Shown here piece by piece: positions 15,193 to 30,320 of a stretch of 30,320 bases of DNA. The stretch is from a virus (Duplodnaviria > Heunggongvirae > Uroviricota > Caudoviricetes). How positions within the stretch are numbered: the first letter of the stretch is position 1; each line of letters begins with the position of its first letter. Where the stretch lies: IMG/VR virus record IMGVR_UViG_2663762810_000003; one strand, given 5' to 3'. The notes under the pieces are model-generated. The model had not been told where the DNA came from and made no database searches. It was given only the letters and a program-made list of their open reading frames with translations. A program made the translations under genes and the position numbers.

Positions 15193-15272
15193 CGAACCCA
15201 CACAGAATATGGCCATCAGCGACATACAGGCGGCGCGCTGTGAGTCGTTCACCATCAGCGAAGGTGGGCGCA

Positions 15273-15803
15273 ATGAGTAATTCACTGTTACCACCATCAG
15301 CCAGCAGTTTCATGCGTTGTGCCGAAGCTGTCGGAACGCGCATTACAGACATCCCGGTAGACCTCAACACGCTGTGGTCGCCGGACACCTGCCCGGTGCA
15401 CCTGCTGCCTTATCTCGCCTGGGCATTTTCCGTTGACCGTTGGGATCGCAACTGGCCGGAAGAGGCAAAACGACAGGTGATTCGTGATGCATGGCTGATA
15501 CACCGACACAAAGGGACCATCAGCGCACTGCGCAGGGCCATTGAGCCGCTGGGATACCTCATTCGCGTGTCTGAGTGGTGGGAGTTCGGCGGAGAACCGG
15601 GAACATTTACCGTTGAAGTCGGCACACTGGACAGTGGCGTGACGGAGGAAATGTATCTGGAAATGGAGCGGTTGATTGCTGATGCCCGTCCGGTCAGCCG
15701 CCACATGACAGGGCTGAATATCATTCAGGAAATTCCGGGGGATATTTTTGCAGCGGCGGCAACTTATGACGGTGAAGTTATTACCATTTATCCGGACGAT
15801 TAA
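15273..15803 (+). CDS. I: baseplate assembly protein gpI
   Basis: 176 aa from the ATG at 15273 (MSNSLLPP...), same length as P2 I; conserved WSPDTCPVHLLPYLAWAFSVDRWD; stop abuts the H start. Confidence 0.85.
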   Translation: MSNSLLPPSASSFMRCAEAVGTRITDIPVDLNTLWSPDTCPVHLLPYLAWAFSVDRWDRNWPEEAKRQVIRDAWLIHRHKGTISALRRAIEPLGYLIRVSEWWEFGGEPGTFTVEVGTLDSGVTEEMYLEMERLIADARPVSRHMTGLNIIQEIPGDIFAAAATYDGEVITIYPDD

Positions 15804-15805
15804 GC

Positions 15806-18034
15806 ATGAGTACCACAACACGAAAATTTAAAACCGTTATCACCGATACAGGTGCCAAAAAATTAGCTCAGGCAGCCGCGCCAGATGGTAAGCCTGTTCG
15901 CCTGACTCATATGTCCGTGGGCGACGGTGGCGGCACGTTGCCCACACCAGACAGTAAGCAGACCCGTCTGGTGCATGAGGTGTGGCGACACACAGTTAAT
16001 CGCGTCATCCTGGACGCAACACATCAGAACCGCATTATTGCGGAGCTGGTTATTCCTCCTGAAACGGGCGGATTCTGGATCCGGGAAATTGGTGTATTTG
16101 ATGAGCACGGCGATTTAATCGCGGTGGGCAATACTGCCGAAAGTTACAAGCCAGCCGTTGCTGAAGGGTCCGGTCGTGCACAAACATTTCGCACCATTCT
16201 GACCGTATCCAGCACGGCCACCGTGGCGCTTACCGTGGATAACACCATGGTGATGGCCACAGTGGATTACGTGGATGACAAACTGAAAGAGCATGAACAG
16301 TCACGACGTCACCCGGACGCCTCGCTGACCGCAAAAGGCTTTGTTCAACTCAGTAGCGCCACTAACAGCGTGTCTGAAACGCAGGCTGCAACGCCGAAAG
16401 CGGTTAAGGCCGCATATGACCTGGCTAACGGAAAATATACCGCTCAGGACGCCACGACGGCACGAAAAGGCCTTGTCCAGCTCAGTAGCGCCACCAACAG
16501 CACGTCTGAAACGCAGGCTGCAACGCCGAAAGCAGTAAAGGCCGCGTATGACCTTGCTAACGCAAAATATACCGCTCAGGACGCCACGACGGCACAAAAA
16601 GGGATAGTCCAGCTCAGTAGTGCCACCAACAGCACGTCTGAAACACTGGCCGCGACATCGAAAGCGGTTAAGGCGGTAATGGATGAAACGAACAAGAAAG
16701 CGCCCTTAAACAGTCCTGCGTTGACCGGAACGCCAACAACGCCAACTGCGCGACAGGGAACGAATAATACCCAAATCGCAAGCACGGCTTTCGTTATGGC
16801 TGCGATTGCCGCCCTTGTAGATTCGTCACCTGACGCACTGAATACGCTGAACGAGTTAGCGGCGGCGCTGGGAAACGACCCGAATTTTGCGACCACCATG
16901 ACTAACGCGCTTGCGGGTAAGCAACCGAAAGATGCCACCCTGACGGCGCTGGCCGGGCTTGCTACTGCGGCAGACAAGTTTCCGTATTTTACGGGGAATG
17001 ATGTCGCCAGCCTGGCAACCCTGACAAAAGTCGGGCGGGATATTCTTGCGAAATCGACCGTTGCCGCCGTTATCGAATACCTCGGTTTACAAGAAACGGT
17101 AAATCAGGCTTCTGGCGCATTACAGAAAAACCAGAACGGCGCAGATATTCCAGGAAAAGATACCTTCACAAAAAATATTGGTGCATGTCGCGCTTTTCAC
17201 AGTGCTATTAGTACAGGGGCAGGGAACTGGACAACGGCACAATTGATTGAATGGCTGGATTCTCAAGGGGCATTCAATCACCCATACTGGATGTGCAAAT
17301 GTTCATGGTCATACGGCAATAATAAAATTATTACCGATACTGGCTGTGGAACTATTCATCTTGCAGGTTGCGTTATTGAGGTTATGGGTAATAAAGGTGC
17401 CATGACCATCCGTGTAACAACACCAAGCACTTCCACCGGAGGCGGCACCACTAACGCTCAATTCACTTATATTAATCATGGTGATGCTTATGCTCCTGGC
17501 TGGCGAAGAGACTACAACACGAAAAACCAGCAGCCTGCATTTGCTTTAGGGCAAACAGGAAGCAGGGTTGCAAATGATAAAGCTGTTGGCTGGAACTGGA
17601 ATAGCGGCGTTTATGATGCAGATATCAGTGGCGCATCGACATTAATCCTCCACTTTAATATGAATGCGGGGAGTTGCCCTGCTGTACAGTTCCGCGTGAA
17701 TTATAAAAACGGCGGTATCTTTTATCGTTCAGCGCGTGATGGTTATGGCTTTGAAGCTAACTGGTCAGAGTTTTACACCACAACCCGCAAACCCTCTGCG
17801 GGGGATGTTGGTGCATATACGCAGGCAGAATGTAACTCAAGGTTTATTACAGGTATTCGCCTGGGCGGTCTGTCATCTGTTCAGACATGGAATGGTCCCG
17901 GCTGGTCTGACAGGTCAGGTTATGTCGTTACAGGTTCAGTTAACGGAAACCGTGATGAATTAATTGATACAACACAGGCAAGGCCAATTCAGTATTGCAT
18001 TAATGGAACGTGGTATAACGCGGGGAGTATTTAA
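15806..18034 (+). CDS. H: tail fibre protein gpH (constant N-terminus plus invertible C-terminal variable part)
   Basis: 742 aa; N-terminus matches the P2 H pattern ([16 protein letters not shown]...HEVWRH...IAELVIPPE); crossover site lies inside the gene at 17070-17095. Confidence 0.9.
16346..16690 (+). repeat. tandem 132-bp (44-aa) repeats, about 2.6 copies, inside H
   Basis: Unit starts at 16346, 16478 and 16610, encoding [44 protein letters not shown]. Confidence 0.8.
17070..17095. other. left 26-bp invertase crossover site (gix/hix-like), TTATCGAATACC-TC-GGTTTACAAGAA
   Basis: Inverted match to the right site at 20129-20154; inverted homology continues inward to about 17152. Confidence 0.6.
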
Positions 18035-18036
18035 TC

Positions 18037-18570
18037 ATGATGCACTTAAAAAACATTACTGCTGGCAATCCTAAAACGAAAGAACAATACCAGCTAACAA
18101 AGCAATTTAACATCAAATGGCTTTATTCAGATGATGGAAAAAACTGGTATGAGGAACAAAAGAACTTTCAGCCTGATACGTTGAAAATGGTCTATGACCG
18201 TAACGGCGTTATTATTTGTATTGAAAAGGATGTTTCAGCAATTAATCCAGAAGGCGCAAGCGTCGTTGAGGTTCCTGATATTACAGCAAATCGCCGGGCT
18301 GATATTTCGGGTAAATGGATGTTCAAAGATGGCGTAGTGGTAAAGCGAACTTATACCGAGGAAGAGCAGAGGCAGCAGGCGGAAAATGAAAAGCAAAGCC
18401 TGCTACAGCTCGTCAGGGATAAAACCCAGCTATGGGACTCACAGCTACGGCTGGGCATCATTTCCGACGAGAATAAACAAAAATTAACCGAGTGGATGCT
18501 CTATGCGCAGAAAGTCGAATCTACAGACACTTCCAGCCTGCCAGTAACGTTTCCCGAACAACCAGAATGA
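18037..18570 (+). CDS. G: tail fibre assembly chaperone gpG
   Basis: 177 aa; immediately after H; homologous to the minus-strand 18598..19125 product. Confidence 0.85.
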
Positions 18571-18597
18571 GGCAAGGCCCGCTATCGGGCCTTAATT

Positions 18598-19125
18598 TTA
18601 CTCTGGTTTTTGTGGCCATTCTGGCTTTGCCGTATCCACACGGCTGACCAGAACACTGTAGCGTTCCCATGCTTCCAGTCGTGTGCGCTCCTCGTCTGTT
18701 GCCATATTCAGCCTGACAGCGCGTTCCAGCGGCTGGATGACTGATTCAGCTTCGGAAAGCAATGCGGCCTTTTGTAATTCGGCCTGTTGTTGCTGTTCGT
18801 CTGCCGTATAAATCCGTTTAACTACAGCTCCATCCTTAAACATCCACTTACCGGAATCATCAGCGCGGCGGTTGGCTGTAATATCGGGAACCTCAACGAC
18901 GCTAAAACCTTCAGGGTTAAGCGTGGAGGCATCTCTAGTGATGGCGACAATAATATTATTTGCATCGTAAACAATCTTTATTGTGTCTGGCTGAAAGTTT
19001 TTCACTTCCTCATACCAGTTTTTTTCGTCCTCGGAGTAAAGCCAGATGACTCCGTGCTTCTTTGTTAACTCATACTGTTCCAGTGTTTTAGCGTTACCCG
19101 CTTTTATGTTCTTTAAGTGCATCAT
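18598..19125 (-). CDS. alternative tail fibre assembly chaperone (G')
   Basis: 175 aa; same MMHLKNI...NWYEE...[13 protein letters not shown]...GKWMFKDG pattern as G with a divergent C-terminus. Confidence 0.85.
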
Positions 19126-19126
19126 A

Positions 19127-20104
19127 TTAAACGCTCGCTACATTATACCAAGTGCCATTTATATACTTTTGAACGGGTCTGTAATAAACGCCCGCTATAT
19201 TATCGGCAGAATTGGACCCTGTATCCTGAACATTAATACCAGACAATACATGACCTGACGGGCACTGGAAATTCCATGTTTGCCAGTTGTTCACTCCATA
19301 ATATTGCTGTGAACCAAGTCGAACATCTTTCACATAACGGGAATCAAAGTTACCGTAATCTGAGGGATTAACACGACCTGTAATATTTATGGTTTTATTA
19401 CTTTGAATACTGCCGGAGACAAAGCGCATAACATGGACGTTATTAGCATAAACATCCAGATACCCGTCGCCATTTTGTTTAAATCCCGTGTCATTATCAC
19501 CCAAAACAATCGAGTTACCACCAAGAGCACTGGATGTTCCGATGCCCAGTGCACCATTCAATTGACCGCCAGATAATGACAACGCCCCAACCTCAGCAGC
19601 AGTCGGTTTAATGTGCGAACTGTAAATTACATATACAGTTCCATCTGTCAGGCCTGTTGGTTTATTCGCTGTATAAGTTGGTGATGTATGAATCGTTACG
19701 CTGGCGTTACTGGTATAATCCCACTGAATATTAACACCTGTGGCGTAATTACCTATTTCAACATAAACATCATAGGTATCACCGGATGTATTCACCCATG
19801 CAAAATTAGTAAATCCAACCGAGGTCCGTCGCCATAATGCACCAGTAATACCTTTTGGATTTCCATTTCCGGCACGCAGAACCAGCTCAGAGATGCCTGC
19901 TTGATGCGGGGAGCCAACGTTAAACCCTGCGCCACCAATCAGGCTTATGTAAACCACGGAACTGGCTTGTGGCATTGTTACAGTTGCCAGTTTGAACCAT
20001 CCTGCACCACCATTAAAAGACATGGTTGTTGAATTTGTTGCTCCAATATTGCGCAGGAATAATCTTTTATCAGGAATATCTGCGCCATTCTGGTTTTTCT
20101 GCAA
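19127..20104 (-). CDS. alternative tail-fibre C-terminal variable segment (Sv'), without its own start; would be expressed after inversion
   Basis: Begins [10 protein letters not shown], the same residues as H around 17130; the frame continues upstream into the inverted repeat. Confidence 0.75.
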
Positions 20105-20128
20105 CGCACCAGAAGCCTGATTTACCGT

Positions 20129-20154
20129 TTCCTGTAAACCGAGGTTTTAGATAA
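20129..20154. other. right 26-bp invertase crossover site, TTCCTGTAAACC-GA-GGTTTTAGATAA
   Basis: Near-identical to the Mu gix-type site as recalled; inverted match to 17070-17095. Confidence 0.6.
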
Positions 20155-20208
20155 TGGCCGTTTCTGACCTGCATGGCATGATTTACGCTTTTGGACGGGA
20201 GATTCAGC

Positions 20209-20796
20209 GTGCTGATTGGCTATGTAAGGGTATCAACAAATGACCAGAATACAGACCTGCAACGAAACGCTCTTGTTTGTGCAGGATGTGAACAAATATT
20301 TGAAGATAAATTAAGCGGGACAAAGACAGACCGACCGGGATTAAAACGCGCTTTAAAGCGTCTTCAAAAAGGTGACACGCTGGTTGTCTGGAAACTGGAT
20401 CGCCTCGGGCGAAGCATGAAACATCTGATTTCTCTCGTCGGGGAACTACGGGAGCGAGGGATTAATTTTCGCAGTCTGACCGACAGCATAGATACATCTT
20501 CTCCAATGGGGCGTTTTTTCTTCCACGTGATGGGTGCCCTGGCTGAAATGGAACGTGAATTAATTGTTGAACGTACACTGGCCGGACTGGCAGCAGCGCG
20601 CGCACGGGGGCGCACAGGCGGACGTCGCCCGAAGCTGACAAAAGAACAGCATGAGCAAATAGCAAGGCTGATTAAAAACGGTCACGACAGAAAACAACTG
20701 GCAATAATTTACGGCATTGGTACATCGACGATTTATCGTTACCACCCCGCAGGAGAATCAAGCGGAACAATAGAGAAGAGTCAGAAAACAAAATAA
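20209..20796 (+). CDS. DNA invertase, serine recombinase of the Gin/Pin/Cin/Hin family
   Basis: Probable GTG start at 20209 (MLIGYVRVSTNDQ); in-frame ATG at 20191 is an alternative; catalytic-Ser N-terminus and C-terminal HTH (GTSTIYRY). Confidence 0.9.
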   Translation: MLIGYVRVSTNDQNTDLQRNALVCAGCEQIFEDKLSGTKTDRPGLKRALKRLQKGDTLVVWKLDRLGRSMKHLISLVGELRERGINFRSLTDSIDTSSPMGRFFFHVMGALAEMERELIVERTLAGLAAARARGRTGGRRPKLTKEQHEQIARLIKNGHDRKQLAIIYGIGTSTIYRYHPAGESSGTIEKSQKTK

Positions 20797-20826
20797 CCGC
20801 TAATCTGACCATTAGCGGTTTTTGTG
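20796..20826 (+). terminator. rho-independent terminator after the invertase (ACCGCTAAT loop ATTAGCGGT, then TTTTTGT)
   Basis: Perfect 9-bp stem followed by a T run, directly after the stop codon. Confidence 0.5.
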
Positions 20827-20831
20827 TTAAA

Positions 20832-21326
20832 TCAGAACAGCCCTTTAACTGAACTGGCCGCGCTGTTAAGAGATGATGTCACCTTATCTTTGAAGCCGGA
20901 CAGCATATCGCTGAACGATGAGGATTGCAGGCGCTCCCGCAAATCCTCATCACAGCGTTCAAGGGTCAGTGAAAATTCTATCTTTTTCGCCTTACCGTAG
21001 CGATCAAACTCGGAACGGGTCGTATTCGTTCCGGTCAGGACATACATGCCGTAAATCTGCCCGACACCATCAATCAGAGGCCAGGGGCGTCCTGTATATG
21101 CCTGCGTGGTCAGCAACGAAAGCGACACTTCGCCACCTGTAATTTCAGGATAAAGCACACCAGAAAGAACGATGCGATCATCGCCTGCCCCGATATACTG
21201 CCAGCTTGCTGAACGGTTAACGCGTTCATTTTTCACATGCCGCCAGCTTTTGTTTTGCTGTAACTGCTGATGCGGCAACGTGCGCAGCTCAAAAACAAAC
21301 ATGCCGTAGATCATCATCATGGCCAT
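20832..21326 (-). CDS. U: tail protein gpU
   Basis: 164 aa, recognised as P2 U-like; immediately downstream of T on the minus strand. Confidence 0.85.
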   Translation of the reverse strand: MAMMMIYGMFVFELRTLPHQQLQQNKSWRHVKNERVNRSASWQYIGAGDDRIVLSGVLYPEITGGEVSLSLLTTQAYTGRPWPLIDGVGQIYGMYVLTGTNTTRSEFDRYGKAKKIEFSLTLERCDEDLRERLQSSSFSDMLSGFKDKVTSSLNSAASSVKGLF

Positions 21327-21332
21327 GACTCC

Positions 21333-24176
21333 TCAATCTTTATCGTAAAAACTGCCACGCCCGGCACGGGCGCGCCGTTCCATTTCTGCCCTGACCATTT
21401 CACCGACCAGTTTCGCCAGTTCGCGGGGATTCTGCGTAACAACGTTATGCAGATGAACATGAATTTCACCACCAAATCCGGAGGCAACAGGCTCCCGGTT
21501 ACGGGAAGTTACAGGAACTGATGCCACTGGAGATCGTATGGCCTCCGCCACCGGGCGGGAGCTGGCCGCAACAACAGGGACCAGCGCCGGAGGCAGCGGA
21601 GCCGGGACCACGGGGGTGATATTAATTGCGGGGGCAGGCTTACTGACCTGCGCAATCTTCCGCTCCTGCCACTCCCCACGAACAGCAAGTGCGCGGGGCA
21701 GGTTCTTAAAGACAATATCGCCGGGGCCAATGCGTTTTTTCGTCTCATCAACCAGCTTACCTGTGTTATCAGCAATTTTGCTGAGTCTGCGCAGCGTACC
21801 GGTATTGCTGTCTGTGAGCGGTTTATTGTCTTTGGGGTTATCACCTCCGGTGCCATTGCCATTTTCCACAGGCTTCGGCGGATTGATTTTCGCCAGGTCC
21901 CCCTGAAGCAAGGCAACCTTGTCCTGAAGAATGGCCGCACGCTGTGCGTCTTCGATTTTCTTGCGCGCCCTTTCCGCTTCATCCGGAAGGACGCCAAGTT
22001 TTTCAAGTATCCACGCCAGCGTATCCAGCAGCATTTTTGCAGGTGTCAGAACAAGCTGTAACGCACCGCCAAGAACGTTACCGAATATCTCGCCAGCACT
22101 GGTACATTTATCCAGCGTTTCCTTGCTGGACTCCATCGGTGACAGCAGCGATTTAAACCAGTTAAACACCTGGCTGATCCCGCTCCCAATTGCGTCAAAA
22201 ACAGGACCAAACCGTTCAAAGGTTTCGCGCAACGGGGTCAGCCTTTCCATAATCCCGCTGAACACCCCGGCAAAAAATGCCCTGATGGGATCCCAGTATT
22301 TCCAGATAAGAACGGCAGCTCCGGCAAGCGCAGCCACGATAAGACCAACCGGACTGAACAGCGCCCCGATAGTGCCTCCCAGCAAAGAAACAGAACCCGT
22401 CACCATTCCCCACAGCGCAGGCAACACCCTGATGACATTCATTGACCGGGTAAGAATGTCGAAACCAAGACGCAAGGTGGCCAGCTTCCCGTAAAGCACC
22501 CCAATAACCAGCGACAACGAGCCAATCGTTGCAGTCATTGCCAGCAACGCACCGCCTGCTATCAGTAGCTGGCGCGTCAGTACCGGATGGGCCTGCGCCA
22601 GCGAGGTGATTTTTTCAAGCACCCGCGTGAGCCACTGCGTGACAGAACGCAGCGGACCGTCAACCAGATCACTGATGCGAATACGAAGACCTTCCCATGC
22701 GCTGTCGAGATTTTTCAGGTCCCCATCAAGATTATCGGCCATTACTTTTGCAACGCGATCGGCCTCTCCCCTTGCCCCCTGCAATTCTCTGGTCAGTTTT
22801 TGCAGCTCTCCTGAACCAGCCGCCGCAACAAGCGTCTGCAAACCAACGAACGCCTCTTCTCCGGCGATGTCCTTGAAGAAGGAGACCTGGTCCACCTGTC
22901 CGTATTTTTGTGTCGCCTTATAGAGATCAAGCAGCACATCCTCCATCGGGCGCATTTTGCCTCTGGCGTCAGCAACTGACACCCCCAGCTCTTTCAGCGC
23001 ATCAGCCGCAGCTTTTGGCGGTGATGCAAGGCGGGACAGACTTGCGCGCATGGCCGTACCAGCATCGCTTCCACGAAGGCCATTATTGGCAAGCATCCCG
23101 GCCATGGCCGCCGCTTCTTCAAGACTGATACCAAGTTTTGCGGCAACCGGACCGGTATACTTCATGGTTTCGCCCAGCGCGCGTAAATCAGTATTGGTCC
23201 GGGTGAATGCCGCTGTCAGCGTATCGCCAACCCGGTCCATTTGATCGGCTGTCAGGTTGAACTGTGTGAGGATATTGGAGCCTATATCCGCCGTCTCGCC
23301 GAGTTCGACGCCACCTGCCAGCGCCATATTAAGAACACCGGGCAATGCGGCCTGAATGGCCTGCGGAGTAAAACCAGCCATTGCCAGAAAGCTCTGCCCA
23401 CTGGCGGCATCACTCGCAGTAAACTGTGTTTCAGAGCCAAGTTTTAACGCCTGCTCACGCAGCGCCTTAAACTGCGGGCTGTTTTTGTCGATTCGCGTCA
23501 GTGCCTGAACACGGGACATCTCTTTGCCGAACCCGATCGCAGGCTGCAAAAAACGCCCGGCAGCATAGCCGCCAGCCGCTGCAGCACCAATTGCCAGCGC
23601 ACCACCTGTTTTCAGTTTTCCCGCGGTTTCCTGCGCGCGCGAATACCGCTCACGCGCCCGCGTTACACGCGCAAGCGCCTGCCGTTCGCGTTCAAGCTGG
23701 TTGTTGTACTGTTCGGTGCGTCTGATGGCCTGCTGGATGGTGTTATCGCTGCCTGTCAGGGAAATGCCGTGGCGTTTCAGCTCTCCGCCAAGTTCCCGCA
23801 TTTTCTGAATTTCCCGTGTGCGCGATTCATTCAGGCGTTCAAGCCGGGTGCTTAACTGCTGCATCAGCTTTTGTTGTTTTTCGCTGAGCACTGTACCCGT
23901 GCGTTGTAACTGATTAAGGGCGTTAAGCTGGCGTCGTGCTTTCACGATACCCGCATCCGCTTTACTGACAGCGTCGCGGGCGAGCTCAAATGAACGCGCC
24001 TGACGCTCGAGATTTTTGATCGCCCCCTGCGTTCGCTGGATGGAGTCACCAAACTGCCCCATCAGGCGGCGGGCGTTTTCGGCAGGCCGGGTCAGCCTGT
24101 CAACGGCGCTGAAAGCGACCCGGATATCAAGAGTCTTCATTGTCTGCACTCCCGCTGCGAAGTGCCGCCCGCTCAC
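21333..24176 (-). CDS. T: tail tape measure protein gpT
   Basis: 947 aa; coiled-coil-rich N-terminus, Gly/Ala-rich hydrophobic middle; follows E/E'. Confidence 0.85.
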   Translation of the reverse strand: MSGRHFAAGVQTMKTLDIRVAFSAVDRLTRPAENARRLMGQFGDSIQRTQGAIKNLERQARSFELARDAVSKADAGIVKARRQLNALNQLQRTGTVLSEKQQKLMQQLSTRLERLNESRTREIQKMRELGGELKRHGISLTGSDNTIQQAIRRTEQYNNQLERERQALARVTRARERYSRAQETAGKLKTGGALAIGAAAAGGYAAGRFLQPAIGFGKEMSRVQALTRIDKNSPQFKALREQALKLGSETQFTASDAASGQSFLAMAGFTPQAIQAALPGVLNMALAGGVELGETADIGSNILTQFNLTADQMDRVGDTLTAAFTRTNTDLRALGETMKYTGPVAAKLGISLEEAAAMAGMLANNGLRGSDAGTAMRASLSRLASPPKAAADALKELGVSVADARGKMRPMEDVLLDLYKATQKYGQVDQVSFFKDIAGEEAFVGLQTLVAAAGSGELQKLTRELQGARGEADRVAKVMADNLDGDLKNLDSAWEGLRIRISDLVDGPLRSVTQWLTRVLEKITSLAQAHPVLTRQLLIAGGALLAMTATIGSLSLVIGVLYGKLATLRLGFDILTRSMNVIRVLPALWGMVTGSVSLLGGTIGALFSPVGLIVAALAGAAVLIWKYWDPIRAFFAGVFSGIMERLTPLRETFERFGPVFDAIGSGISQVFNWFKSLLSPMESSKETLDKCTSAGEIFGNVLGGALQLVLTPAKMLLDTLAWILEKLGVLPDEAERARKKIEDAQRAAILQDKVALLQGDLAKINPPKPVENGNGTGGDNPKDNKPLTDSNTGTLRRLSKIADNTGKLVDETKKRIGPGDIVFKNLPRALAVRGEWQERKIAQVSKPAPAINITPVVPAPLPPALVPVVAASSRPVAEAIRSPVASVPVTSRNREPVASGFGGEIHVHLHNVVTQNPRELAKLVGEMVRAEMERRARAGRGSFYDKD

Positions 24177-24656
24177 GCCAGCTAACCACTTCGCCGGGCG
24201 TCATCATGAAGATTTCGGCGGGCGACCAGTTAAAAATAACGGCAATATCTGCCACAAAGTCTTCTATGTGCTCAAAGCACACAACCGTGATCAGGCTTCC
24301 GTCGCCTGTTCGTTCTTCCCGCCAGAGTCCGCACCGCTCAAAAAATTTACGGCAACCACACATAACTGAATAAAGTCACAGGATGCCATTTTTTTGATCG
24401 TCACTTCATCCAGTCGCGGTGATGTCACGCGTGACAGCAGCGTAAACATGGATTCCGCTTTCAGATTCAGCACATCAGACAGCGACAAATCTCGCAGAGA
24501 TCCAGCCTGCTCAATAGCTCCGGTGATCTCCACATACGTGATTTTTTCGCCGCCTCGCTCAATTGGTTGGGTAAGTTTTACGCCACGCTCACTGGTTTCT
24601 TTCACAGTGTCAGCAACGACCGTGTTTTCGTTATCGATGTTTTTCGTCTCTTTCAT
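24127..24656 (-). CDS. gpE+E' fusion made by programmed -1 frameshift at T-TTT-TTG (plus-strand 24329-24335)
   Basis: E frame reads AAT TTT TTG (N F L); the -1 frame continues K F F E R C G L W..., the 24127..24363 ORF. Confidence 0.6.
24291..24656 (-). CDS. E: tail assembly chaperone gpE
   Basis: 121 aa upstream of T; contains the slippery heptamer near its 3' end. Confidence 0.8.
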   Translation of the reverse strand: MKETKNIDNENTVVADTVKETSERGVKLTQPIERGGEKITYVEITGAIEQAGSLRDLSLSDVLNLKAESMFTLLSRVTSPRLDEVTIKKMASCDFIQLCVVAVNFLSGADSGGKNEQATEA

Positions 24657-24710
24657 CAGGAAACTCCTTTCAGTCAGAGGCGACGCACTGCGCCGCCTGC
24701 ATATTACTTA

Positions 24711-25223
24711 TCAGCCAAGCCCAAGCGCGGAACGGATGCGATCGGGCACAATGTCCTTGCCGTCCTTCCGGTAAATGAAGTTCAGCAGGTCAATCTCCCA
24801 CAACGGGCGATCGTTAACACTCAGCTTGTAGTAGGTGTTTTTAATGGCGTAAGTGTGTGATGTGGCTTCGCCCTGTTTGGCTTCCCCCATATCAATTTCC
24901 GTCACACGTCCGCGCATTTCGACTTCATACAGGTCGCTTTCTGCATCGGTGTAGTATTCACCCGCAAAACGCAGCAGCGTGCCGTCAATCGTGCCGCCAT
25001 ACTTAAGGAACAGCTCACGAACTGCGCCCCCCATGACAAAGCTCGCATCAAGCGCGGAGTCGTCCAGACCGAGATCAATACTTACCGCACCCATCATGCC
25101 GCCCCCCCGGTAGCTGTCGGTTTTGCGCGTCAGTTTGGGCAGAGTGACGGACGTCACCTTACCCACTTCGTTTTCACCATCCACAAACAGCGTAAAAAAG
25201 CGAAGATGTTTTGGCACAGCCAT
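24711..25223 (-). CDS. FII: tail tube protein gpFII
   Basis: 170 aa, P2 FII-like size and position after FI. Confidence 0.85.
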   Translation of the reverse strand: MAVPKHLRFFTLFVDGENEVGKVTSVTLPKLTRKTDSYRGGGMMGAVSIDLGLDDSALDASFVMGGAVRELFLKYGGTIDGTLLRFAGEYYTDAESDLYEVEMRGRVTEIDMGEAKQGEATSHTYAIKNTYYKLSVNDRPLWEIDLLNFIYRKDGKDIVPDRIRSALGLG

Positions 25224-26407
25224 CAGGCACCTCCCAGCACCGCAAATGCGGGTTCAAAGTATTCATCAGTAAACGTCTGGTAAAGCTCCATGTCTTCCAG
25301 TGGCGGAACGGGCGTATATTTGTAGCGAATACGCACACGCCCCTGACGTAAATCCGTGGTGCTGTTATCCACCACGTCATACCAGCACTCCGCACCAATC
25401 AGTTTCCCGGCAGTAACCAGTGAATCCAGTTTTGCCCTGATGGCACTGATAACATCCTTCACGTTCGCAGGCGTCAGTGGACTGTCGATGGTTTCAAACT
25501 GCGCTTCCGCAATTGAATCAGCCAGCACCTGTGCGGTTCGGGTATACACCTCAAAGATGTAGGCGTTCGTTTCCGGTGTGCGGTTGCCCCAGAAGCGGAA
25601 CCCGTTGCGACGAATAATGGTCGTGATTTCTTTGTTGTTGAGGCTGTTGGCATCGCTGTCTTCGGCCTGCAACGACCAGAACACATGCCTCGACATCCCC
25701 AGCACATTTTTAACCGGAACGTTGGACAGTGATTTGTGCCACCCCTGCTCATGGTCAATGTACGCACGAAGGCCGCACGCATAGGCAGGCGCGGGGAACG
25801 TTTCGTTTTTGCCAGTTTTCGGGTTGTAGGCGATGAAGTCCGGCCATAAGAGCATCACCTCACGTTCGTTGAATTTCTGGCGGTAGGTAATCGCCTCTGC
25901 CATCGTGTTACAGCCGTGACATGAGGCATACACAAACGCGCGCAGTTTACCCGCAATCACGCACAGGGATTTTGTTACCGCCTCCGTGTCCAGCTCCGGC
26001 GCGGCCAGAATACGCGGACGGTATCCGATGCTTTCATCCTGCTCTGCAACAAGCAGCGCATACATCCCCGTATAGCTGCCGTCAGATTCAGAACCACCGA
26101 TAACCAGTTGATCCTGCGTTTTTCCGTCTTCTTCTTTGTGTTCAGCCACGCGAACGACGATCACCTTTGTGCTCACCTGGTCTGCGATGGCCTTAAGCGC
26201 ACGATAAAGCGTCCCCGTTGTCCCGCATTTTCCCAGCACGTCATTGACGCGGGTCAGCAGTGTGGGCTTGTTCAGCGGGAACAGCTTCGCGTCCGCATCA
26301 TCCGCCGTTGCCACGATACCGATAACACTGGAATCAACATCGTTAATCGCTGTTACCAGGTCGGTATTTTCCGTAACACGGGCACCATGAAAACGAGTTT
26401 CACTCAT
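25223..26407 (-). CDS. FI: tail sheath protein gpFI
   Basis: 394 aa; conserved LRAF.YASCHGC, PDF.A, GWHK.LSNV, RRNGFRFWGNRT and YTPVPPLE blocks as in P2 FI. Confidence 0.9.
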   Translation of the reverse strand: MSETRFHGARVTENTDLVTAINDVDSSVIGIVATADDADAKLFPLNKPTLLTRVNDVLGKCGTTGTLYRALKAIADQVSTKVIVVRVAEHKEEDGKTQDQLVIGGSESDGSYTGMYALLVAEQDESIGYRPRILAAPELDTEAVTKSLCVIAGKLRAFVYASCHGCNTMAEAITYRQKFNEREVMLLWPDFIAYNPKTGKNETFPAPAYACGLRAYIDHEQGWHKSLSNVPVKNVLGMSRHVFWSLQAEDSDANSLNNKEITTIIRRNGFRFWGNRTPETNAYIFEVYTRTAQVLADSIAEAQFETIDSPLTPANVKDVISAIRAKLDSLVTAGKLIGAECWYDVVDNSTTDLRQGRVRIRYKYTPVPPLEDMELYQTFTDEYFEPAFAVLGGA

Positions 26408-26564
26408 AGCTTCAGCCCCTTGTATCCGTTAAATGATTCGGCAACAATCATCACCCACCACGCGCGTAATCTCACCCCTGCGCCGTTCTCCCGCCACGGC
26501 GACAACAAAAAGCAGTAACCCCCTCCGCACGCACATGCGACCATGCCGCACAGGGAGGGAACAG

Positions 26565-27674
26565 ATGACCGACACCACCATGCAATTGCTCAGTCAGGGC
26601 ACAGACCCCGTGAAAATGCCGGATTTTGATATTCTCGCGGAGGGTAAAACGCTGTCAGGCGTGGCAGAGCGCCTGATGAGCCTGTCACTGACCGACAACC
26701 GGGGATTTGAAGCGGACCAGCTCACCATCACGCTGGATGATGCGGATGGTCAGTTGCAGCTACCGCCACGGGGCGCGCGCCTGACGGTTCTCATTGGCTG
26801 GAAAGGAGAACCGCTGACAGAAAAAGGCACTTACATTGTTGATGAAATCGCTCACGAAGGACCGCCGGACAGGCTGACTGTTTCAGCCAGAAGCGCAGAT
26901 TTCCGGGATGAATTTAACGTTAAACGTGAGGTGTCCTGGCATGATGTGACCGTTGAGCGTGTGGTATCCGCCATCGCTCATCGGTATGGTCTGAAACCGC
27001 AAATCAGCGAAATGCTGATGGATATCGAAATCGACCACGCCGACCAGACCGAAGAAAGCGACATGTCCTTCCTTACGCGCATGGCGGAAATGCTGGGCGC
27101 AATCACCACGGTAAAAAGCGGTAATCTGTTATTCATCATGCCCGGCGGTGGCGTGAACGCACAGGGCCAGCCGTTGCCATCGTTCGCCATCACACGCAGT
27201 AGCGGCGATCGCCATCAGTTCCGCATTGCTGACCGCGAGGCGTATACGGGGGTACGCGCTTACTGGCTTGATCTTAATTACGGGAAAAAGAAAAAAGTCA
27301 GCGTGAAACGCCGCAAACCGCCACAACCGAAAAAAGAGAAAAGCAGCAGCCGTGAAGGTGATTATATGGAAGGCGCGGAAGGCAATGTGTTTGTGTTACG
27401 CAAGACTTATCAGAACGAGCAGGCAGCAAGACGCGCAGCGGCGGCAAAGTGGCAACAACTACAACGCGGAGCCGCATCATTCTCCATCACGCTGGCACGT
27501 GGACGAGCAGAACTCTACCCCGAAATGCATGGCACGGTAACAGGATTTAAAAGCGAGATTGATAATCAGGACTGGATTATTGCAAAAGCCGAGCACACCA
27601 TTGATAACAGCGGCTTTACCACGCAGCTTGAGCTTGAGGCAAAAATCCCGGAATGGATAGCGGAAACAGAGTGA
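26565..27674 (+). CDS. D: tail protein gpD
   Basis: 369 aa from the ATG at 26565 with GGGAGGGAA SD; the track ORF from 26433 over-extends; P2 D-like. Confidence 0.85.
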   Translation: MTDTTMQLLSQGTDPVKMPDFDILAEGKTLSGVAERLMSLSLTDNRGFEADQLTITLDDADGQLQLPPRGARLTVLIGWKGEPLTEKGTYIVDEIAHEGPPDRLTVSARSADFRDEFNVKREVSWHDVTVERVVSAIAHRYGLKPQISEMLMDIEIDHADQTEESDMSFLTRMAEMLGAITTVKSGNLLFIMPGGGVNAQGQPLPSFAITRSSGDRHQFRIADREAYTGVRAYWLDLNYGKKKKVSVKRRKPPQPKKEKSSSREGDYMEGAEGNVFVLRKTYQNEQAARRAAAAKWQQLQRGAASFSITLARGRAELYPEMHGTVTGFKSEIDNQDWIIAKAEHTIDNSGFTTQLELEAKIPEWIAETE

Positions 27675-27716
27675 GCAACTTAGAATAGCGGCAGCACCAC
27701 GTTAAAGGAGGTCGCT

Positions 27717-27977
27717 ATGTTCCGTTGTCCGCTTTGTGGCGCATCTGCCCGTATCCGCACCAGTCGTCCGGAAAATGATTCAAACACCGTGCGGCAAAAG
27801 TATTACCAGTGTAACAACCTGGAATGCGGCGTATGCTTCTCAACACTGGAAGCTTTCCATAAATTCACATCGAAACACGCCTCCGGCGTTCACTCATCAG
27901 AAGGTATCCCGTGGCATGAGCTGCCAGCTTCACACAGGGGAAACAATCAGATGAGTTTGCCTTTACCTCAGAATTAA
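27717..27977 (+). CDS. ogr: Ogr-family zinc-finger late-gene activator
   Basis: MFRCPLCGASARIRTSR...YYQCNNLEC resembles P2 Ogr (MFHCPLC...RTSR...QCQNVNC); 86 aa, longer than P2 Ogr. Confidence 0.7.
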   Translation: MFRCPLCGASARIRTSRPENDSNTVRQKYYQCNNLECGVCFSTLEAFHKFTSKHASGVHSSEGIPWHELPASHRGNNQMSLPLPQN

Positions 27978-28166
27978 CAGGCAGAATTGCCGGAGTAACA
28001 AAAAAGCGATAGATTACGTGCGGGTGCCTTTCGGCTGATGGTCGGAGGGAATACCCGAAGGCCGGATGTGGAAAGGCCCCGGAAAACATTTCTGTTTAAC
28101 CGAGGCCCTAACCCGTCAACCTAGCAAGTGATAGGTTAGCGCCTCTCCAACAAAGGAGCAAGCGCT

Positions 28167-28307
28167 ATGTCGCAAAAATCGCTTACGGCCATCACGTTCT
28201 GCGTGACGGTAATCCTCATCATCTGGATGCTGCACGGTTCGCTGTGTGAAATACGGATGAGCTTCTGGGGAGCGGAGTTTGCGGCGTTCTTACAGTGTAA
28301 GCAGTAA
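28167..28307 (+). CDS. Hok/Gef-family type I toxin (46 aa)
   Basis: MSQKSLTAITFCVTVILIIWMLHGSLCEIRMSFWGAEFAAFLQCKQ; hydrophobic helix then SLCEIR and AAF as in Hok/Gef; AAAGGAG SD; below the ORF-track cut-off. Confidence 0.6.
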   Translation: MSQKSLTAITFCVTVILIIWMLHGSLCEIRMSFWGAEFAAFLQCKQ

Positions 28308-28395
28308 GGAAACCGCGACGGGGAGGCAACTCCCCGTCAATCGGTTGCTAGGGTAAGGCCGATAAGGCACCCTATCTCATAGGCATGAATAACAA

Positions 28396-28428
28396 CCCCG
28401 CAGCGTAAAAACTGCGGGGTTTCTTTTT
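28396..28428. terminator. stem-loop terminator (CCCCGCAG / CTGCGGGG, then TTTCTTTTT) between the convergent hok-like gene and 28497..28778
   Basis: 8-bp GC-rich stem followed by a T run on the plus strand. Confidence 0.55.
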
Positions 28429-28496
28429 GGAACTCTCACTAGCTAGTGAGCCGTTAACTGCACATAATGCTCGCACAACAAATCAGTTAAAAGAGA

Positions 28497-28778
28497 TTAC
28501 TCAGCATTCTCCTGCTTCCATTGCCGGATCATTTCATCGGTAACATCACTTTCATAACATACCACGTCATACCCTCCAGTACGGCTATATGCACTGCGTC
28601 CACCACATCTACTACCATTCCTTGCATGATTATACGGACACGCACAATTGCCTGGATAAGATTCAATGGATTCTTTAATTATTTCTTTCTTGATCTGAGC
28701 ATCTGACTTTCCTGTTGCTGCATACCCACTAAAAGATACCAAACAAAGGCAGATTGCCATTAATAAACCACATCGCAT
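28497..28778 (-). CDS. small Cys-rich secreted protein (start at MRCGLL; upstream in-frame ATG at 28892 is an alternative)
   Basis: Signal-like MRCGLLMAICLCLVSFSGYAATG, then GNCACPY...RCGG...VVCYE; AT-rich; no clear SD. Confidence 0.4.
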   Translation of the reverse strand: MRCGLLMAICLCLVSFSGYAATGKSDAQIKKEIIKESIESYPGNCACPYNHARNGSRCGGRSAYSRTGGYDVVCYESDVTDEMIRQWKQENAE

Positions 28779-29251
28779 ACCGATACACTCTATTACTAAC
28801 CAATCATAGCCCACATCATAAAATCGAGATGAGGAGTACAACACCTTTAACAAGAAGGTGCCATCACGATAATATGCCGTGCAATTCATCAAAAAAAAGA
28901 TCTATATCAAAGAGATAGAGTTATTATCAGTGCTGCAGACATCAGCATTCGAGGCAGCAGAAAGACAGTAAATCTAACGAATTTGTCTTTTTCTCAGGAT
29001 GTTGTCAGATTAAAAAAGATAGAGTAGCGCAGACACCTTTTGGTGGATGGTAGGAGGAAAAATGAAGTTGAGTGGGAAGATCCCAGAAAAAACTTTGGTT
29101 TAACCAAGGCCCTAGTTCAATATGCGAAATGCAGATGAGTTGCAGGAGAGTTTTGCTTCACCCTTAGAGTTTAAACAGACGTGTACTATCATTATTTCTG
29201 CATATCGCCACACCATCGCCACTTTACCGCCATTTAACAAAATACAAATAC

Positions 29252-29274
29252 AAAAAACCACCCGAAGGTGGTTT
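29252..29274 (-). terminator. rho-independent terminator of the glyW-cysT-leuZ operon
   Basis: On the minus strand: CCACC-TTCG-GGTGG followed by a T run, about 45 nt past the leuZ 3' end. Confidence 0.5.
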
Positions 29275-29317
29275 CACGACACTGCTTATTGCTTTGATTT
29301 TATTCTTATCTTTCCCA

Positions 29318-29404
29318 TGGTACCCGGAGCGGGACTTGAACCCGCACAGCGCGAACGCCGAGGGATTTTAAATCCCTTGTGTCTACCGATTCCACCATCC
29401 GGGC
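29318..29404 (-). tRNA. leuZ: tRNA-Leu (anticodon UAA), 87 nt with long variable arm
   Basis: Reverse complement reads GCCCGGATGGTGGAATCGGTAGACACAAGGGATTTAAAATCCCTCGGCGTTCGCGCTGTGCGGGTTCAAGTCCCGCTCCGGGTACCA. Confidence 0.95.
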
Positions 29405-29416
29405 TCGGGAAGAAAG

Positions 29417-29490
29417 TGGAGGCGCGTTCCGGAGTCGAACCGGACTAGACGGATTTGCAATCCGCTACATAACCGCTTTGTTAACGCGCC
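29417..29490 (-). tRNA. cysT: tRNA-Cys (anticodon GCA), 74 nt
   Basis: Reverse complement reads GGCGCGTTAACAAAGCGGTTATGTAGCGGATTGCAAATCCGTCTAGTCCGGTTCGACTCCGGAACGCGCCTCCA. Confidence 0.95.
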
Positions 29491-29544
29491 AAATTCTTCA
29501 GGCCTTTCAGCCAGACATCCGCTTGAGGCCGATGTCTTTTAAAC

Positions 29545-29620
<76 letters not shown>

Positions 29621-29693
29621 ATTCATCAAGCAATCAGTTAATCACTTGATTTTATTATCGTCTGGCAATCAGTGCCGCCGTTCGATGCGTTGC

Positions 29694-29720
29694 ATTCTAC
29701 TTACCTGGCGCGATGAGTCA
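29694..29720 (-). promoter_or_regulatory. candidate sigma70 promoter of the tRNA operon (TTGACT, 16-17 nt, TAGAAT on the minus strand)
   Basis: Hexamers read on the reverse complement between pgsA and glyW. Confidence 0.4.
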
Positions 29721-29771
29721 ACGATATTTTTCACCACTTTTGATCGTTTGCTGAAAATTGCGCCGAAACGA

Positions 29772-30320
29772 TCACTGATCAAGCAAATCTGCACGCGCAG
29801 CGCTCAAATATTGCAACATTGACCACAGAGTGAGTACCGCAGCCACAAAGAAAAGTGCAATACCGGCGTACTCAACCCAAATGTTCGGACGCCACAGCAG
29901 CCAGGCCAACGCCACCATCTGGGCAGTGGTTTTCACTTTCCCAATCCAGGAGACAGCCACGCTACTGCGTTTACCCAACTCCGCCATCCATTCGCGTAGC
30001 GCAGAAATAATAATTTCACGGGCAATCATCGTTGCCGCCGGTAAGGTCACCCACCAGCTGTGGTAATGCTCGGTTACCAGCACCATGGCGATAGCCACGA
30101 GAACTTTATCTGCTACAGGGTCAAGGAAAGCACCAAACCGGGTACTCTGGTTCCAGCGGCGTGCCAGAAAACCATCGAACCAGTCAGTCACCGCCGCGAC
30201 GCAGAAAATGAGCGCGGCGGCAAACGGCGACCAGGTGACAGGCAGATAAAAGACCAATACAAAGAATGGGATAAGGATGACACGGAACAGTGTAAGCAAC
30301 GTAGGGATATTAAATTGCAT
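29772..30320 (-). CDS. pgsA: CDP-diacylglycerol--glycerol-3-phosphate 3-phosphatidyltransferase
   Basis: 182 aa recognised as E. coli PgsA ([20 protein letters not shown]...[30 protein letters not shown]); conserved pgsA-glyW-cysT-leuZ synteny; start codon is at the window end. Confidence 0.95.

Follow-up and report, generated by a model that had tools for sequence, protein, structure and literature searches.

The window analyzed here is a 30,320-nt stretch of viral DNA (IMG/VR record IMGVR_UViG_2663762810_000003). We assigned the identity and strand of the genes in its tail block and of their neighbors from Pfam profile matches and a program-made list of open reading frames (ORFs). The plus strand carries gpI (15240–15803), H (15806–18034), and G (18037–18570), as well as a serine DNA invertase of the Gin/Hin/Cin family (20209–20796; Pfam Resolvase, 1.5e-50, and HTH_7). 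The invertase ORF (20191–20796) opens at a TTG codon at 20191, and comparison with phage P88 makes the GTG at 20209 the probable start. Beyond a gap of 35 nt (20797–20831), five tail genes lie on the minus strand. Read in their own direction, these are gpFI, the tail sheath protein and first gene of the inverted operon (25223–26407; Pfam Phage_sheath_1, Gp18_domIII_N, and Phage_sheath_1C; 46% identical to P2 FI); gpFII, the tail tube protein (24711–25223; Phage_tube, 7.5e-47); gpE (24291–24656) with its E' extension frame (24127–24363); gpT, the tape-measure protein (ORF maximum 21333–24176; PhageMin_Tail, 1.6e-56), which has a probable start at about 24140 as judged against P88 and is 33% identical to P2 T; and gpU, a tail protein and the last gene of the operon (20832–21326; Phage_P2_GpU, 1.5e-38; 46% identical to P2 U). 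The Pfam search gave no match for gpE, which was recognized by tblastn from its 96% identity to P88 E and 32% identity to P2 E. The E' frame, taken from the ORF list, overlaps gpE, and a P2-type slippery heptamer, TTTTTTG, lies within the overlap (24345–24339, minus strand). From the heptamer and the overlapping frame, E and E' are a predicted programmed −1 frameshift pair encoding the tail chaperones.

On the other side of FI, a spacer of 157 nt (26408–26564) that contains no gene separates the sheath gene from gpD, the late control D or baseplate hub protein, which is divergently encoded on the plus strand (26565–27674; Phage_GPD). gpD is 48% identical to P2 D and 53% identical to Fels-2 D, and its N-terminal 12–18 residues could not be aligned among relatives. 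An ogr-type zinc-finger late activator follows (27717–27977, plus strand; Ogr_Delta, 5.1e-14). The window thus has the P2-type contractile-tail late module, with orthologs of FI, FII, E/E', T, U, D, and Ogr at 33–48% identity to P2 overall.

The first-pass annotation had described this block as inverted relative to the canonical gene order, and we confirmed this point: in P2, 186, and Fels-2, FI-FII-E-T-U-D share a single strand, and the end of U overlaps D. The window lacks the canonical single operon, in which FI through U and D are co-oriented with V-W-J-I-H-G; FI through U run on the other strand, and D diverges from them. gpD has been split off from the ancestral F operon. The strand layout given earlier, with I, H, G, D, and ogr on the plus strand and U through FI on the minus strand (20832–26407), also held, whereas the gap between the invertase and U stops (given as 36 nt) and the FI–D spacer (given as 158 nt) had each been counted one nucleotide too long.

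Distribution of the inverted layout

The nearest named phage, P88 (Xuanwuvirus, Peduoviridae), has the same order and strands as the window from the invertase to ogr: invertase on the plus strand, U, T, E', E, FII, and FI on the minus strand, and D on the plus strand. Window positions 20062–28428 and P88 positions 26831–35188 form a single 8,369-bp alignment of 95.7% identity that spans both boundaries of the block. At the protein level, identity is 100% for U, FII, and the invertase, 99% for FI, and 97% for D, and the P88 FI–D spacer is nearly base-for-base equal to that of the window. Elsewhere, the late and replication regions are 85–98% identical, whereas the lysogeny region and cargo differ: the integrase and immunity region is not the same (39% identity for Int), A and Q enclose a KAP NTPase as cargo in the window but parM-like genes in P88, and the tail-fiber segment lies in the other orientation. 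The ICTV genus criterion is 70% whole-genome nucleotide identity. The window also lacks 7.8 kb of head, lysis, and baseplate genes (P88 14098–21944), in place of which stands a 973-bp fragment of the F-plasmid tra region (14220–15188); the 31-mer across the insert junction had no match in IMG/VR or JGI metagenomes.

Other close relatives in the P88 group are Citrobacter phage phiSM (Shae_phiSM), P884B11, 500465-2, and PhiR44_2. Window positions 20134–28200 matched Shae_phiSM and P884B11 in one piece each, and the FI–D spacer is about 155–190 bp long across the group, into which the order and spacer of the window fit. P88 is a plaque-forming phage with a contractile tail and a burst size of about 65 (PMC5285337), and phiSM is an active phage (PMC6456863). 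We then searched 5,426 complete E. coli genomes for the two possible junctions, at least one half of which was matched in 1,414. The native FI–D junction was present at 80% coverage or more in 1,301 genomes, about a quarter of the whole set. By contrast, a synthetic canonical U-to-D junction built from the same genes was found in 0 of the 1,414 genomes matching either half. The same prophage does hold one unique, odd rearrangement, the F-plasmid fragment at 14220–15188, showing that its history or assembly is not clean; nevertheless, we rejected the reading of the inversion as private to this prophage or as an assembly artifact, to which we give practically no credence, given the single colinear alignments of both boundaries with P88, phiSM, and P884B11 and the junction in 1,301 complete genomes.

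A wider survey used loci fetched by their similarity to the D protein of the window, and therefore samples one clade by design. The inverted layout was present in all 42 genome loci having both FI and D, from about 25 enterobacterial genera (D 64–99% identical), and in 80 of 80 IMG/VR loci (D 62–100% identical). It is shared by SEN4 (Senquatrovirus; D 63%) and 3LV2017 (Reginaelenavirus; D 70%), and the departure from canonical operon order is common to the whole P88/SEN4/3LV2017 clade. Canonical order is kept in Kapieceevirus (D 52%), Fels-2, P2, 186, Pseudomonas phage Dobby, and Burkholderia phage KL3, and the layout changes just where D identity drops from 62.7% to 51.8% with no value in between. 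Because these phages are canonical, the canonical order is ancestral; because the clade is uniform while P2, 186, Fels-2, and the Pseudomonas and Burkholderia relatives are canonical, one old, fixed inversion is indicated. That it was a single event is suggested by the clean gap in D identity and by the outgroups.

These results overturn the idea of a local or recent inversion, as the orientation is shared by the intact and viable phages P88, phiSM, SEN4, and 3LV2017 and by more than 1,300 E. coli genomes. Intact related prophages in the same orientation had been named beforehand as the observation that would speak against a rearrangement, and the P88-type relatives are all inverted. The inverted tail block is the ordinary gene order of P88-type phages, and the apparent inversion is a clade character. 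A gene order unlike that of textbook P2 or 186 should be compared with the closest relatives before it is taken for a rearrangement in the sample. FI divergent from D also provides a simple marker: among the Peduoviridae examined, it sets Xuanwuvirus, Reginaelenavirus, and Senquatrovirus apart from the rest. The P88, phiSM, and SEN4 papers, and the literature searched on Xuanwuvirus and late promoters, do not explicitly describe the inverted block.

Invertase, tail-fiber segment, and block boundaries

The window contains an invertible tail-fiber segment of the Mu G-segment type (17066–20158, with genes on both strands). Its arms are 93-nt inverted repeats (17066–17158 and 20066–20158) holding gix-like 26-bp crossover sites at 17070–17095 (minus strand) and 20129–20154 (plus strand), and it contains the variable end of H, G, and alternative G' and H' genes on the minus strand. 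The segment is flipped relative to P88, with window positions 17066–19171 aligning to P88 26926–24812 in reverse, and is an internal positive control for what a real invertase substrate looks like. In a survey of phase variation in E. coli, the inversions reported in P2-like prophages were those of tail fibers only.

We scanned the window for crossover sites, allowing up to three mismatches to the gix-like 26-mer and up to one in the AAACCNNGGTTT core. Gin/Hin-type sites were found only at the ends of the tail-fiber segment and once more at 29090; none lay at 20797–20831 or 26408–26564. No inverted repeat brackets 20797–26564, where only a terminator hairpin and chance pairs were found. The hairpin (20795–20820) is an intrinsic terminator for both directions, placed where the invertase and U genes converge; its 10-bp stem is preceded by an A-tract and followed by a T-tract. 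The terminator scan detected it on both strands, and it also appears in the list of inverted repeats (20787–20804/20811–20828). Only about half of the relatives have a recognizable terminator downstream of U, and these show no sequence relationship, indicating that the left-edge sequence is not a conserved element.

The earlier description had also placed a common motif at both edges of the block, as a possible recombination or late-promoter element. The motif, TTANNGNTTTTTGT, is present at both, at 20812–20825 on the plus strand and at 26505–26518 on the minus strand, 13–18 nt away from the right-hand coordinates given before; the two copies share 11 of 14 bases. Its low expectation in shuffled sequence (0.02) is circular, since the pattern was derived from these same two copies. 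A fair test compares the 35-nt and 157-nt boundary regions with each other and scores their best 14-nt match in inverted orientation. A score of 11 of 14 bases or higher came up in 31 of 500 shuffles, and in 53 of 500 pairs of pieces drawn at random from the window (p ≈ 0.06–0.11), a frequency at which the motif does not exceed chance. The motif was accordingly rejected as a shared recombination element, being a chance-level match with no crossover site or bracketing repeat. As a late-promoter element, only the right copy retains a case: it is the A-rich flank immediately beside a conserved Ogr-type dyad (see below), whereas the left copy is the 3' arm and T-tail of the terminator.

These observations bear on whether the FI–U block is a second, larger invertible segment, flipped within the population by the adjacent Gin-like invertase. 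The invertase gene does adjoin the left edge of the block, and the 11/14 motif is inverted at both edges, with a GGTTTTTG core that resembles a hix/gix half-site. Nevertheless, it is very improbable: crossover sites and bracketing repeats are missing from the boundaries, the motif is no better than chance, and the opposite orientation occurred in 0 of 1,414 E. coli genomes and 0 of 122 loci, whereas the tail-fiber segment is already flipped between the window and P88. Flipping the block would also take the promoter of D away, and the invertase is missing from most relatives that have the inverted layout. The gene is carried by only 7 of 42 genome loci and 16 of 80 IMG/VR loci, so that the layout occurs without it in 35 and 64 loci, respectively (some of the IMG/VR loci are truncated).

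A one-off ancestral inversion by a Gin-family invertase acting at weak "quasi" sites, and later fixed, is unlikely as well, although less so. Cin is documented to use quasi-sites. Where the invertase is present, it always lies directly beside the U end (7/7 genome loci and 16/16 IMG/VR loci), and in canonical Fels-2 it is directly upstream of FI, which would put one breakpoint at the end of the invertase gene. However, neither boundary in the window retains a recognizable remnant of a site, the second breakpoint would hit the point at which U and D overlap in canonical phages, with no spacer between them, and most members of the clade lack the invertase.

The layout could also have arisen by replacement, if the sheath–tube–tape-measure module of another phage had been taken in in reversed orientation. 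Phage genomes are mosaic, E has no Pfam match, and T is only 31–33% identical to P2 and Fels-2 T. By contrast, FI, FII, and U are 44–48% identical to their P2 and Fels-2 counterparts, in line with the flanking D (48–53%) and with the head and baseplate genes Q, P, and I. FI, FII, U, and D as a set show 44–48% identity to P2, and Q, P, and I 45–55% to Fels-2; with identities in the same range, the FI–U block appears orthologous rather than foreign. The putative activator dyad of the candidate promoter upstream of FI (PF) is as far from the start of FI as its counterparts in Fels-2 and Kapieceevirus, both canonical (about 79–89 bp). From the matching identities and this distance, the block looks like the lineage's own operon, and we regard replacement as improbable.

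Candidate late promoters in the FI–D spacer

The FI–D spacer contains a dyad, TCT-N12-ACA, at 26487–26504 (center 26495.5). On the FI side, a −10-like hexamer, GATGAT, lies at 26452–26447 (minus strand), and on the D side an extended −10 element, TG-n-GACCAT, is formed by TG at 26536–26537 and GACCAT at 26539–26544 (plus strand). Both hexamers are centered 46 bp from the dyad center, and a ribosome-binding site for D, GGGAGGG, follows at 26553–26559. TGT-N12-ACA is the published consensus of P2 late promoters (PMC3931495). The dyad of the window is of this type and is located about 55 bp upstream of the presumed starts; its deviation to TCT is also found in the P88 PP/PO spacer, where hexamers flank TCT-N12-ACAACAAAAG at distances of 46 and 47 bp.

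We made a phylogenetic footprint of 42 distinct FI–D spacers. Between pairs of them the median identity is 56%, and their N12 stretches come in 32 different sequences. The dyad was 18 nt long in all 42, with T3, A16, C17, A18, and A19 invariant, and its left half-site was TGT in 17 and T/CCT, with C in the middle position as in the window, in 25. An nAnnAT hexamer 46 bp from the dyad was present on the FI side in 41 of 42 spacers and on the D side in 39 of 42, and TG preceded the D-side hexamer in 41–42. This 46/46 spacing, exact to the base pair, persists in three or more genera of Peduoviridae and in phages from about 25 genera of hosts. The D side as a whole forms a conserved block, CGCGCGC...TG-n-nAnnAT, whose invariant GC-rich part lies 15–24 bp upstream of the presumed start. 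By analogy with P2, the spacer probably holds one shared putative Ogr site, bound by Ogr and driving divergent promoters for FI (PF) and D (PD). Transcription would start near 26440 (minus strand) and 26551 (plus strand), with a very short PD leader of about 2–3 nt ahead of the Shine–Dalgarno sequence. No description of a PF/PD promoter appears in the P88, phiSM, and SEN4 papers or in the Xuanwuvirus and late-promoter literature searched.

It is possible, though doubtful, that the layout is fixed and D nevertheless has an Ogr-independent or otherwise regulated promoter, the conserved D-side block having another role. The D side has no consensus −35, the invariant GC-rich block is unexplained, and a scan of the spacer for sigma-70 consensus promoters came up empty, although such a scan is uninformative for activator-dependent promoters. 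A weak −35 is, however, expected in promoters of this kind, and a similar GC-rich block precedes the −10 of P88 PP, a known Ogr-type promoter position. Moreover, a 46-bp spacing between the D-side hexamer and the dyad, held in 39 of 42 diverged spacers, would be pointless if the two were unrelated.

Taken together, we put at roughly 85% the probability that the window is a defective P88-type prophage in which FI-FII-E/E'-T-U was inverted once, long ago, giving a fixed and functional arrangement that is neither an invertase substrate nor an artifact, and in which PF and PD share the dyad. The operon would have inverted between the tail-fiber genes and D and kept its Ogr-dependent promoter PF, which moved along and would now point away from D. 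At its far end, transcription would stop at the bidirectional terminator that also closes the convergent invertase gene. D, having lost its upstream operon, would be served by PD as a new divergent promoter, using the same single dyad, T[G/C]T-N12-ACA, as PF, much as P2 PP and PO share one site about 55 bp from each start. Somewhat better than even are the odds that the old inversion, in splitting the seven-gene F operon, was tolerated since the single PF dyad was co-opted in both directions, creating a second bidirectional late promoter in the style of PP/PO. The modest by-product is a testable model for D expression, in which PF and PD point apart and use a single Ogr site; if true, it would be a clean natural case of promoter capture after operon breakage.

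Comparison with known late operons and invertible segments

The tail-fiber segment of the window (17066–20158) resembles the Mu G segment with Gin, the P1 C segment with Cin, and Salmonella Hin: all have inverted 26-bp sites, here within repeats of about 90 nt, alternative tail-fiber C-termini with chaperones, and an invertase beside one site. The FI–U block has none of these features. Fels-2 (Felsduovirus) has the same tail-fiber shufflon and a Gin-family invertase (73% identical) between the tail-fiber genes and the sheath operon. Unlike in the window, the invertase is followed by FI-FII-E-T-U-D-ogr on one strand.

The F operon of P2 (pF-FI-FII-E/E'-T-U-D) and the J operon of 186 contain the same seven orthologs and the same E/E' frameshift pair as the window, and an Ogr/B-type activator site precedes the sheath gene by a similar distance. 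In P2 and 186, however, the operon runs with H-G, and D belongs to it, its start overlapping the last part of U, whereas in the window FI through U are reversed and D is a separate, divergent unit. For the spacer itself, the closest counterpart is P2 pP/pO, where one dyad of the TGT-N12-ACA type lies midway between divergent late genes, about 55 bp from their starts; the P2 record gives a single activator site (3057–3087) for both promoters, with starts at 3016 and 3127. The window is alike in this arrangement, although the gene pair is FI/D rather than P/O and its starts are inferred whereas those of P2 were measured. The second, putative bidirectional unit of this kind, FI/D, occurs only in the inverted-block clade.

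Organisation and spread of the inverted tail block

On the plus strand of the window, gpI (15240-15803), the tail fibre gene H (15806-18034), G (18037-18570) and a resolvase-type invertase gene ending at 20796 are followed by gpD (26565-27674) and ogr (27717-27977). Between the invertase gene and gpD lies a contiguous minus-strand run of U (20832-21326), the tape measure gene T (21333-24176), E (24291-24656), the tube gene FII (24711-25223) and the sheath gene FI (25223-26407), with a TTTTTTG slippery site (24345-24339), found by sequence inspection, linking E to an E' frame (24127-24363). E and E' were taken from the ORF list and the other genes from the ORF list and Pfam, which bore out the gene calls of the first-pass annotation. 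The gaps that it had described at the two ends of the block exist, but each was given one base too long; they measure 35 nt between the invertase and U genes (20797-20831) and 157 nt between FI and D (26408-26564). In P2, 186 and Fels-2, D overlaps the end of U and FI-FII-E-T-U-D are co-oriented, whereas in the window FI-U is on the opposite strand from D. Thus, the block is inverted relative to the textbook order, as had been claimed.

The arrangement is no anomaly of the window. Related intact prophages sharing the orientation had been named at first pass as the refuting observation, and such relatives exist (P88, phiSM and P884B11). Phage P88 (NC_026014, Xuanwuvirus) is annotated with the same layout, namely invertase (+), U, T, E', E, FII and FI (-), and D (+). 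Window 20062-28428 aligned to P88 26831-35188 as one 8,369-bp segment of 95.7% identity that crossed both boundaries unbroken, and window 20134-28200 was matched in one piece by Citrobacter phage Shae_phiSM and by Xuanwuvirus P884B11. Because P88 is plaque-forming, with a contractile tail and a burst size near 65 (PMC5285337), and phiSM is an active phage (PMC6456863), the layout belongs to working phages.

Of 5,426 complete E. coli genomes, 1,301 covered at least 80% of a query spanning the native FI-D junction (window 25808-27164), and most of them did so at 95-99% identity. By contrast, a synthetic canonical junction, in which the same U sequence was read forward and joined to the same D sequence, was covered in none of the 1,414 E. 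coli genomes matching one of its halves. Searching with the D protein in one genome per species yielded 47 loci from about 25 enterobacterial genera, including Salmonella, Edwardsiella, Serratia, Erwinia, Pantoea, Enterobacter, Klebsiella, Kosakonia, Pectobacterium, Brenneria and Symbiopectobacterium. Every genome locus holding both FI and D (42 distinct spacers; D 64-99% identical) had the order U- T- E- FII- FI- / D+ ogr+, and all 80 of 80 IMG/VR loci (D 62-100% identical) had the window layout. Since an invertase was seen in just 7 of the genome loci and 16 of the viral ones, the layout is independent of it.

The inverted layout is also found in the named phages SEN4 (Senquatrovirus, D 63%) and 3LV2017 of Klebsiella (Reginaelenavirus, D 70%). 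The next-closest phages, Kapieceevirus ST512-KPC3phi13.2 (D 52%), Fels-2 (53%) and P2 (48%), have the canonical order, as do the distant Pseudomonas phage Dobby and Burkholderia phage KL3, and the switch in order coincides with a gap in D identity, from 62.7% to 51.8%. These results indicate that the canonical order is ancestral and that the clade of the window carries one old, fixed inversion. The inverted block is how P88-type Peduoviridae are normally organised, as many deposited and annotated genomes show; we put the probability of a layout fixed in the lineage above 0.95. As to its source, the identities of FI (46-48%), FII (44-47%) and U (46%) to P2 and Fels-2 are in the same range as those of the neighbouring D (48-53%) and of the head and baseplate genes Q, P and I (45-55%), which speaks for the lineage having inverted an operon of its own and against acquisition of a foreign module.

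Several loci deserve separate mention. Two Firmicutes-labelled contigs, L005 (NZ_JBQPOM010000071.1, 'Vagococcus sp. WN89Y') and L046 ('Planococcaceae bacterium UBA3378'), hold the enterobacterial prophage module with 96-99% protein identity and unchanged gene order, most likely through contamination or mis-binning of those assemblies. The genome of Symbiopectobacterium purcellii (NZ_CP189882.1) has at least three module copies (L009, L010 and L013); in L013, FII and a truncated match to FI are about 1.6 kb apart, suggesting an insertion. L048 (Trabulsiella odontotermitis) has gpI on the opposite strand, and its distance from the spacer dyad to the D start exceeds that of all other loci by about 80 nt. 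These appear to be decaying or rearranged copies.

The invertase and the edges of the block

Within 93-nt inverted repeats (17066-17158 and 20066-20158) lie gix-like 26-mers, at 17070-17095 (-) and 20129-20154 (+). The segment that the repeats delimit, 17066-20158, codes on opposite strands for alternative versions of the H C-terminus and the G chaperone. Its orientation in the window is opposite to that in P88. This is a genuine Mu-G-type invertible tail-fibre segment and the proper substrate of the invertase. The search for crossover sites at both FI-U boundaries, proposed at first pass, was run on the window and returned neither a gix-like 26-mer (up to three mismatches) nor its AAACCNNGGTTT core (up to one mismatch), and no inverted repeat bracketing FI-U was found in the window. 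FI-U as a Gin/Hin-type invertible segment was rejected after crossover sites, dual orientation and invertase dependence had all been tested and none found. In the record of phage 186 (L136, 3963-3988), a 'Mu-like inversion crossover site' is annotated within tail-fibre gene K, and 186 has no invertase. This site is a relic; invertase systems come and go in the family independently of tail-operon orientation.

The motif said to be shared by the two edges, TTANNGNTTTTTGT, is indeed present at both, at 20812-20825 (+) and 26505-26518 (-), but its proposed role as a recombination element did not survive. Between regions of 35 and 157 nt, an inverted match of 11/14 turned up in 6% of shuffles and in 11% of random window-piece pairs, and each copy has its own ordinary explanation. 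The left copy makes up the 3' arm and T-tail of a hairpin with a 10-bp stem (20795-20820). Terminator scoring picks up this hairpin as an intrinsic terminator in both directions, in keeping with the convergence of the invertase and U genes. At this position, relatives carry terminators of unrelated sequence or lack a recognisable one. The right copy is A-rich sequence flanking the putative late-promoter dyad.

Plasmid fragment, cargo gene and host flank

The window prophage is defective. A 973-bp stretch (14220-15188) is F-type conjugative plasmid DNA (3' trbI, whole traW and 5' traU), 99.6-99.9% identical to many E. coli plasmids, and it lies exactly where the 7.8 kb of P88 14098-21944 is missing, comprising the 5' end of P, the PP/PO promoter, O, N, M, L, X, lysis genes, R, S, V, W and most of J. 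Sequence sharing at the two junctions (about 14219/14220 and 15188-15191) is limited to 1 nt and 3 nt. A 1.6-kb query across both junctions was covered to at least 80% in no complete E. coli genome, a left-junction 31-mer had no exact match in IMG/VR or JGI metagenomes, and this part is intact in the closest E. coli prophages, which come from O157:H7 strains. The fragment could reflect real illegitimate recombination or a chimera of assembly or construction.

Between replication gene A and portal gene Q, an AT-rich gene (GC about 0.30; 9258-10622, -) encodes a 454-aa KAP-family P-loop NTPase that matches the PADLOC candidate defence family PDC-S20 (8e-76) and, more weakly, PifA and QatA, making it a candidate defence cargo gene. 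The slot is the counterpart of the old/tin accessory locus in P2; P88 has parM-like genes there instead. The window begins precisely with the integrase stop codon (integrase region, 1-1002), and its integrase is only 39% identical to P88 Int. At the right (28430-30320) it ends in host DNA of the E. coli leuZ-cysT-glyW-pgsA neighbourhood, with tRNA-Leu(taa), tRNA-Cys and tRNA-Gly (29318-29620, -) and a pgsA-like CDP-alcohol phosphatidyltransferase gene (29772-30320, -).

The spacer between FI and D

Alignment of the 42 distinct FI-D spacers (median pairwise identity 56%, minimum 38%) revealed three islands of conservation: a dyad and two hexamers, one on the FI side and one on the D side. The dyad, T(G/C)T-N12-ACA (TCT-N12-ACA in the window, 26487-26504), is 18 nt long in all 42 spacers, with T3 and A16-C17-A18-A19 invariant and 32 different sequences in N12. 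The FI-side hexamer is GAnnAT on the minus strand (GATGAT, 26452-26447), with A2, A5 and T6 invariant. In the D-side TG-n-nAnnAT, the TG (26536-26537) is found in 41-42 of 42 spacers, and A2 and T6 of the hexamer (GACCAT, 26539-26544) in all 42. The hexamer centre is exactly 46 bp from the dyad centre in 41/42 spacers on the FI side and 39/42 on the D side; the dyad lies about 55.5 bp upstream of inferred starts near 26440 (-) and 26551 (+).

A CGCGCGC block (GCACGCAC in the window, 26527-26535) is almost invariant (38-41 of 42 relatives), just upstream of the -10 of PD, the inferred D promoter, and 15-24 bp upstream of its inferred start. P88 (L001, 14183-14191) has a similar CCGCGCGCG ahead of the -10 of its PP promoter. 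This GC-rich block could be a spacer or discriminator-like element, or a site for another factor. The gpD N-terminus is hypervariable (26565-26620, the first ~18 codons): D alignments with relatives, P2 and Fels-2 begin only at residue 13-19, leaving the first 12-18 residues unaligned, and the remainder is 62-99% identical within the clade. Such an N-terminus would be expected if a new start codon had to evolve by the old inversion breakpoint.

TGT-N12-ACA is the consensus of the four P2 late promoters dependent on the late activator Ogr (PMC3931495). In the P2 record, a single activator site (3057-3087) serves the divergent pP and pO, whose mapped starts, 3016 and 3127, are 56 and 55 bp from the site centre. 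Similarly, the P/O spacer of P88 contains TCT-N12-ACAACAAAAG, with half-sites as in its own FI-D spacer and hexamers at 46 and 47 bp. Fels-2 and Kapieceevirus, which are canonical, have the dyad upstream of FI at a similar distance, suggesting that the half belonging to PF, the inferred FI promoter, was inherited. In P2, FI through D are driven by pF; after the inversion, D would have been without an upstream operon and in need of its own promoter. In the best reading, which we hold with moderate confidence on the strength of alignment and analogy, the clade would have turned PF into a two-way promoter region of the PP/PO kind, in which PF and the new PD share a single Ogr site. Against this stand the very short inferred D leader and the invariant CGCGCGC block, which the shared site leaves unexplained. 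Searchable papers on P88, phiSM and SEN4 contain no comment on the inverted block or a D promoter, and the shared-site arrangement may be undescribed. It would represent a small extension of the PP/PO paradigm of P2.
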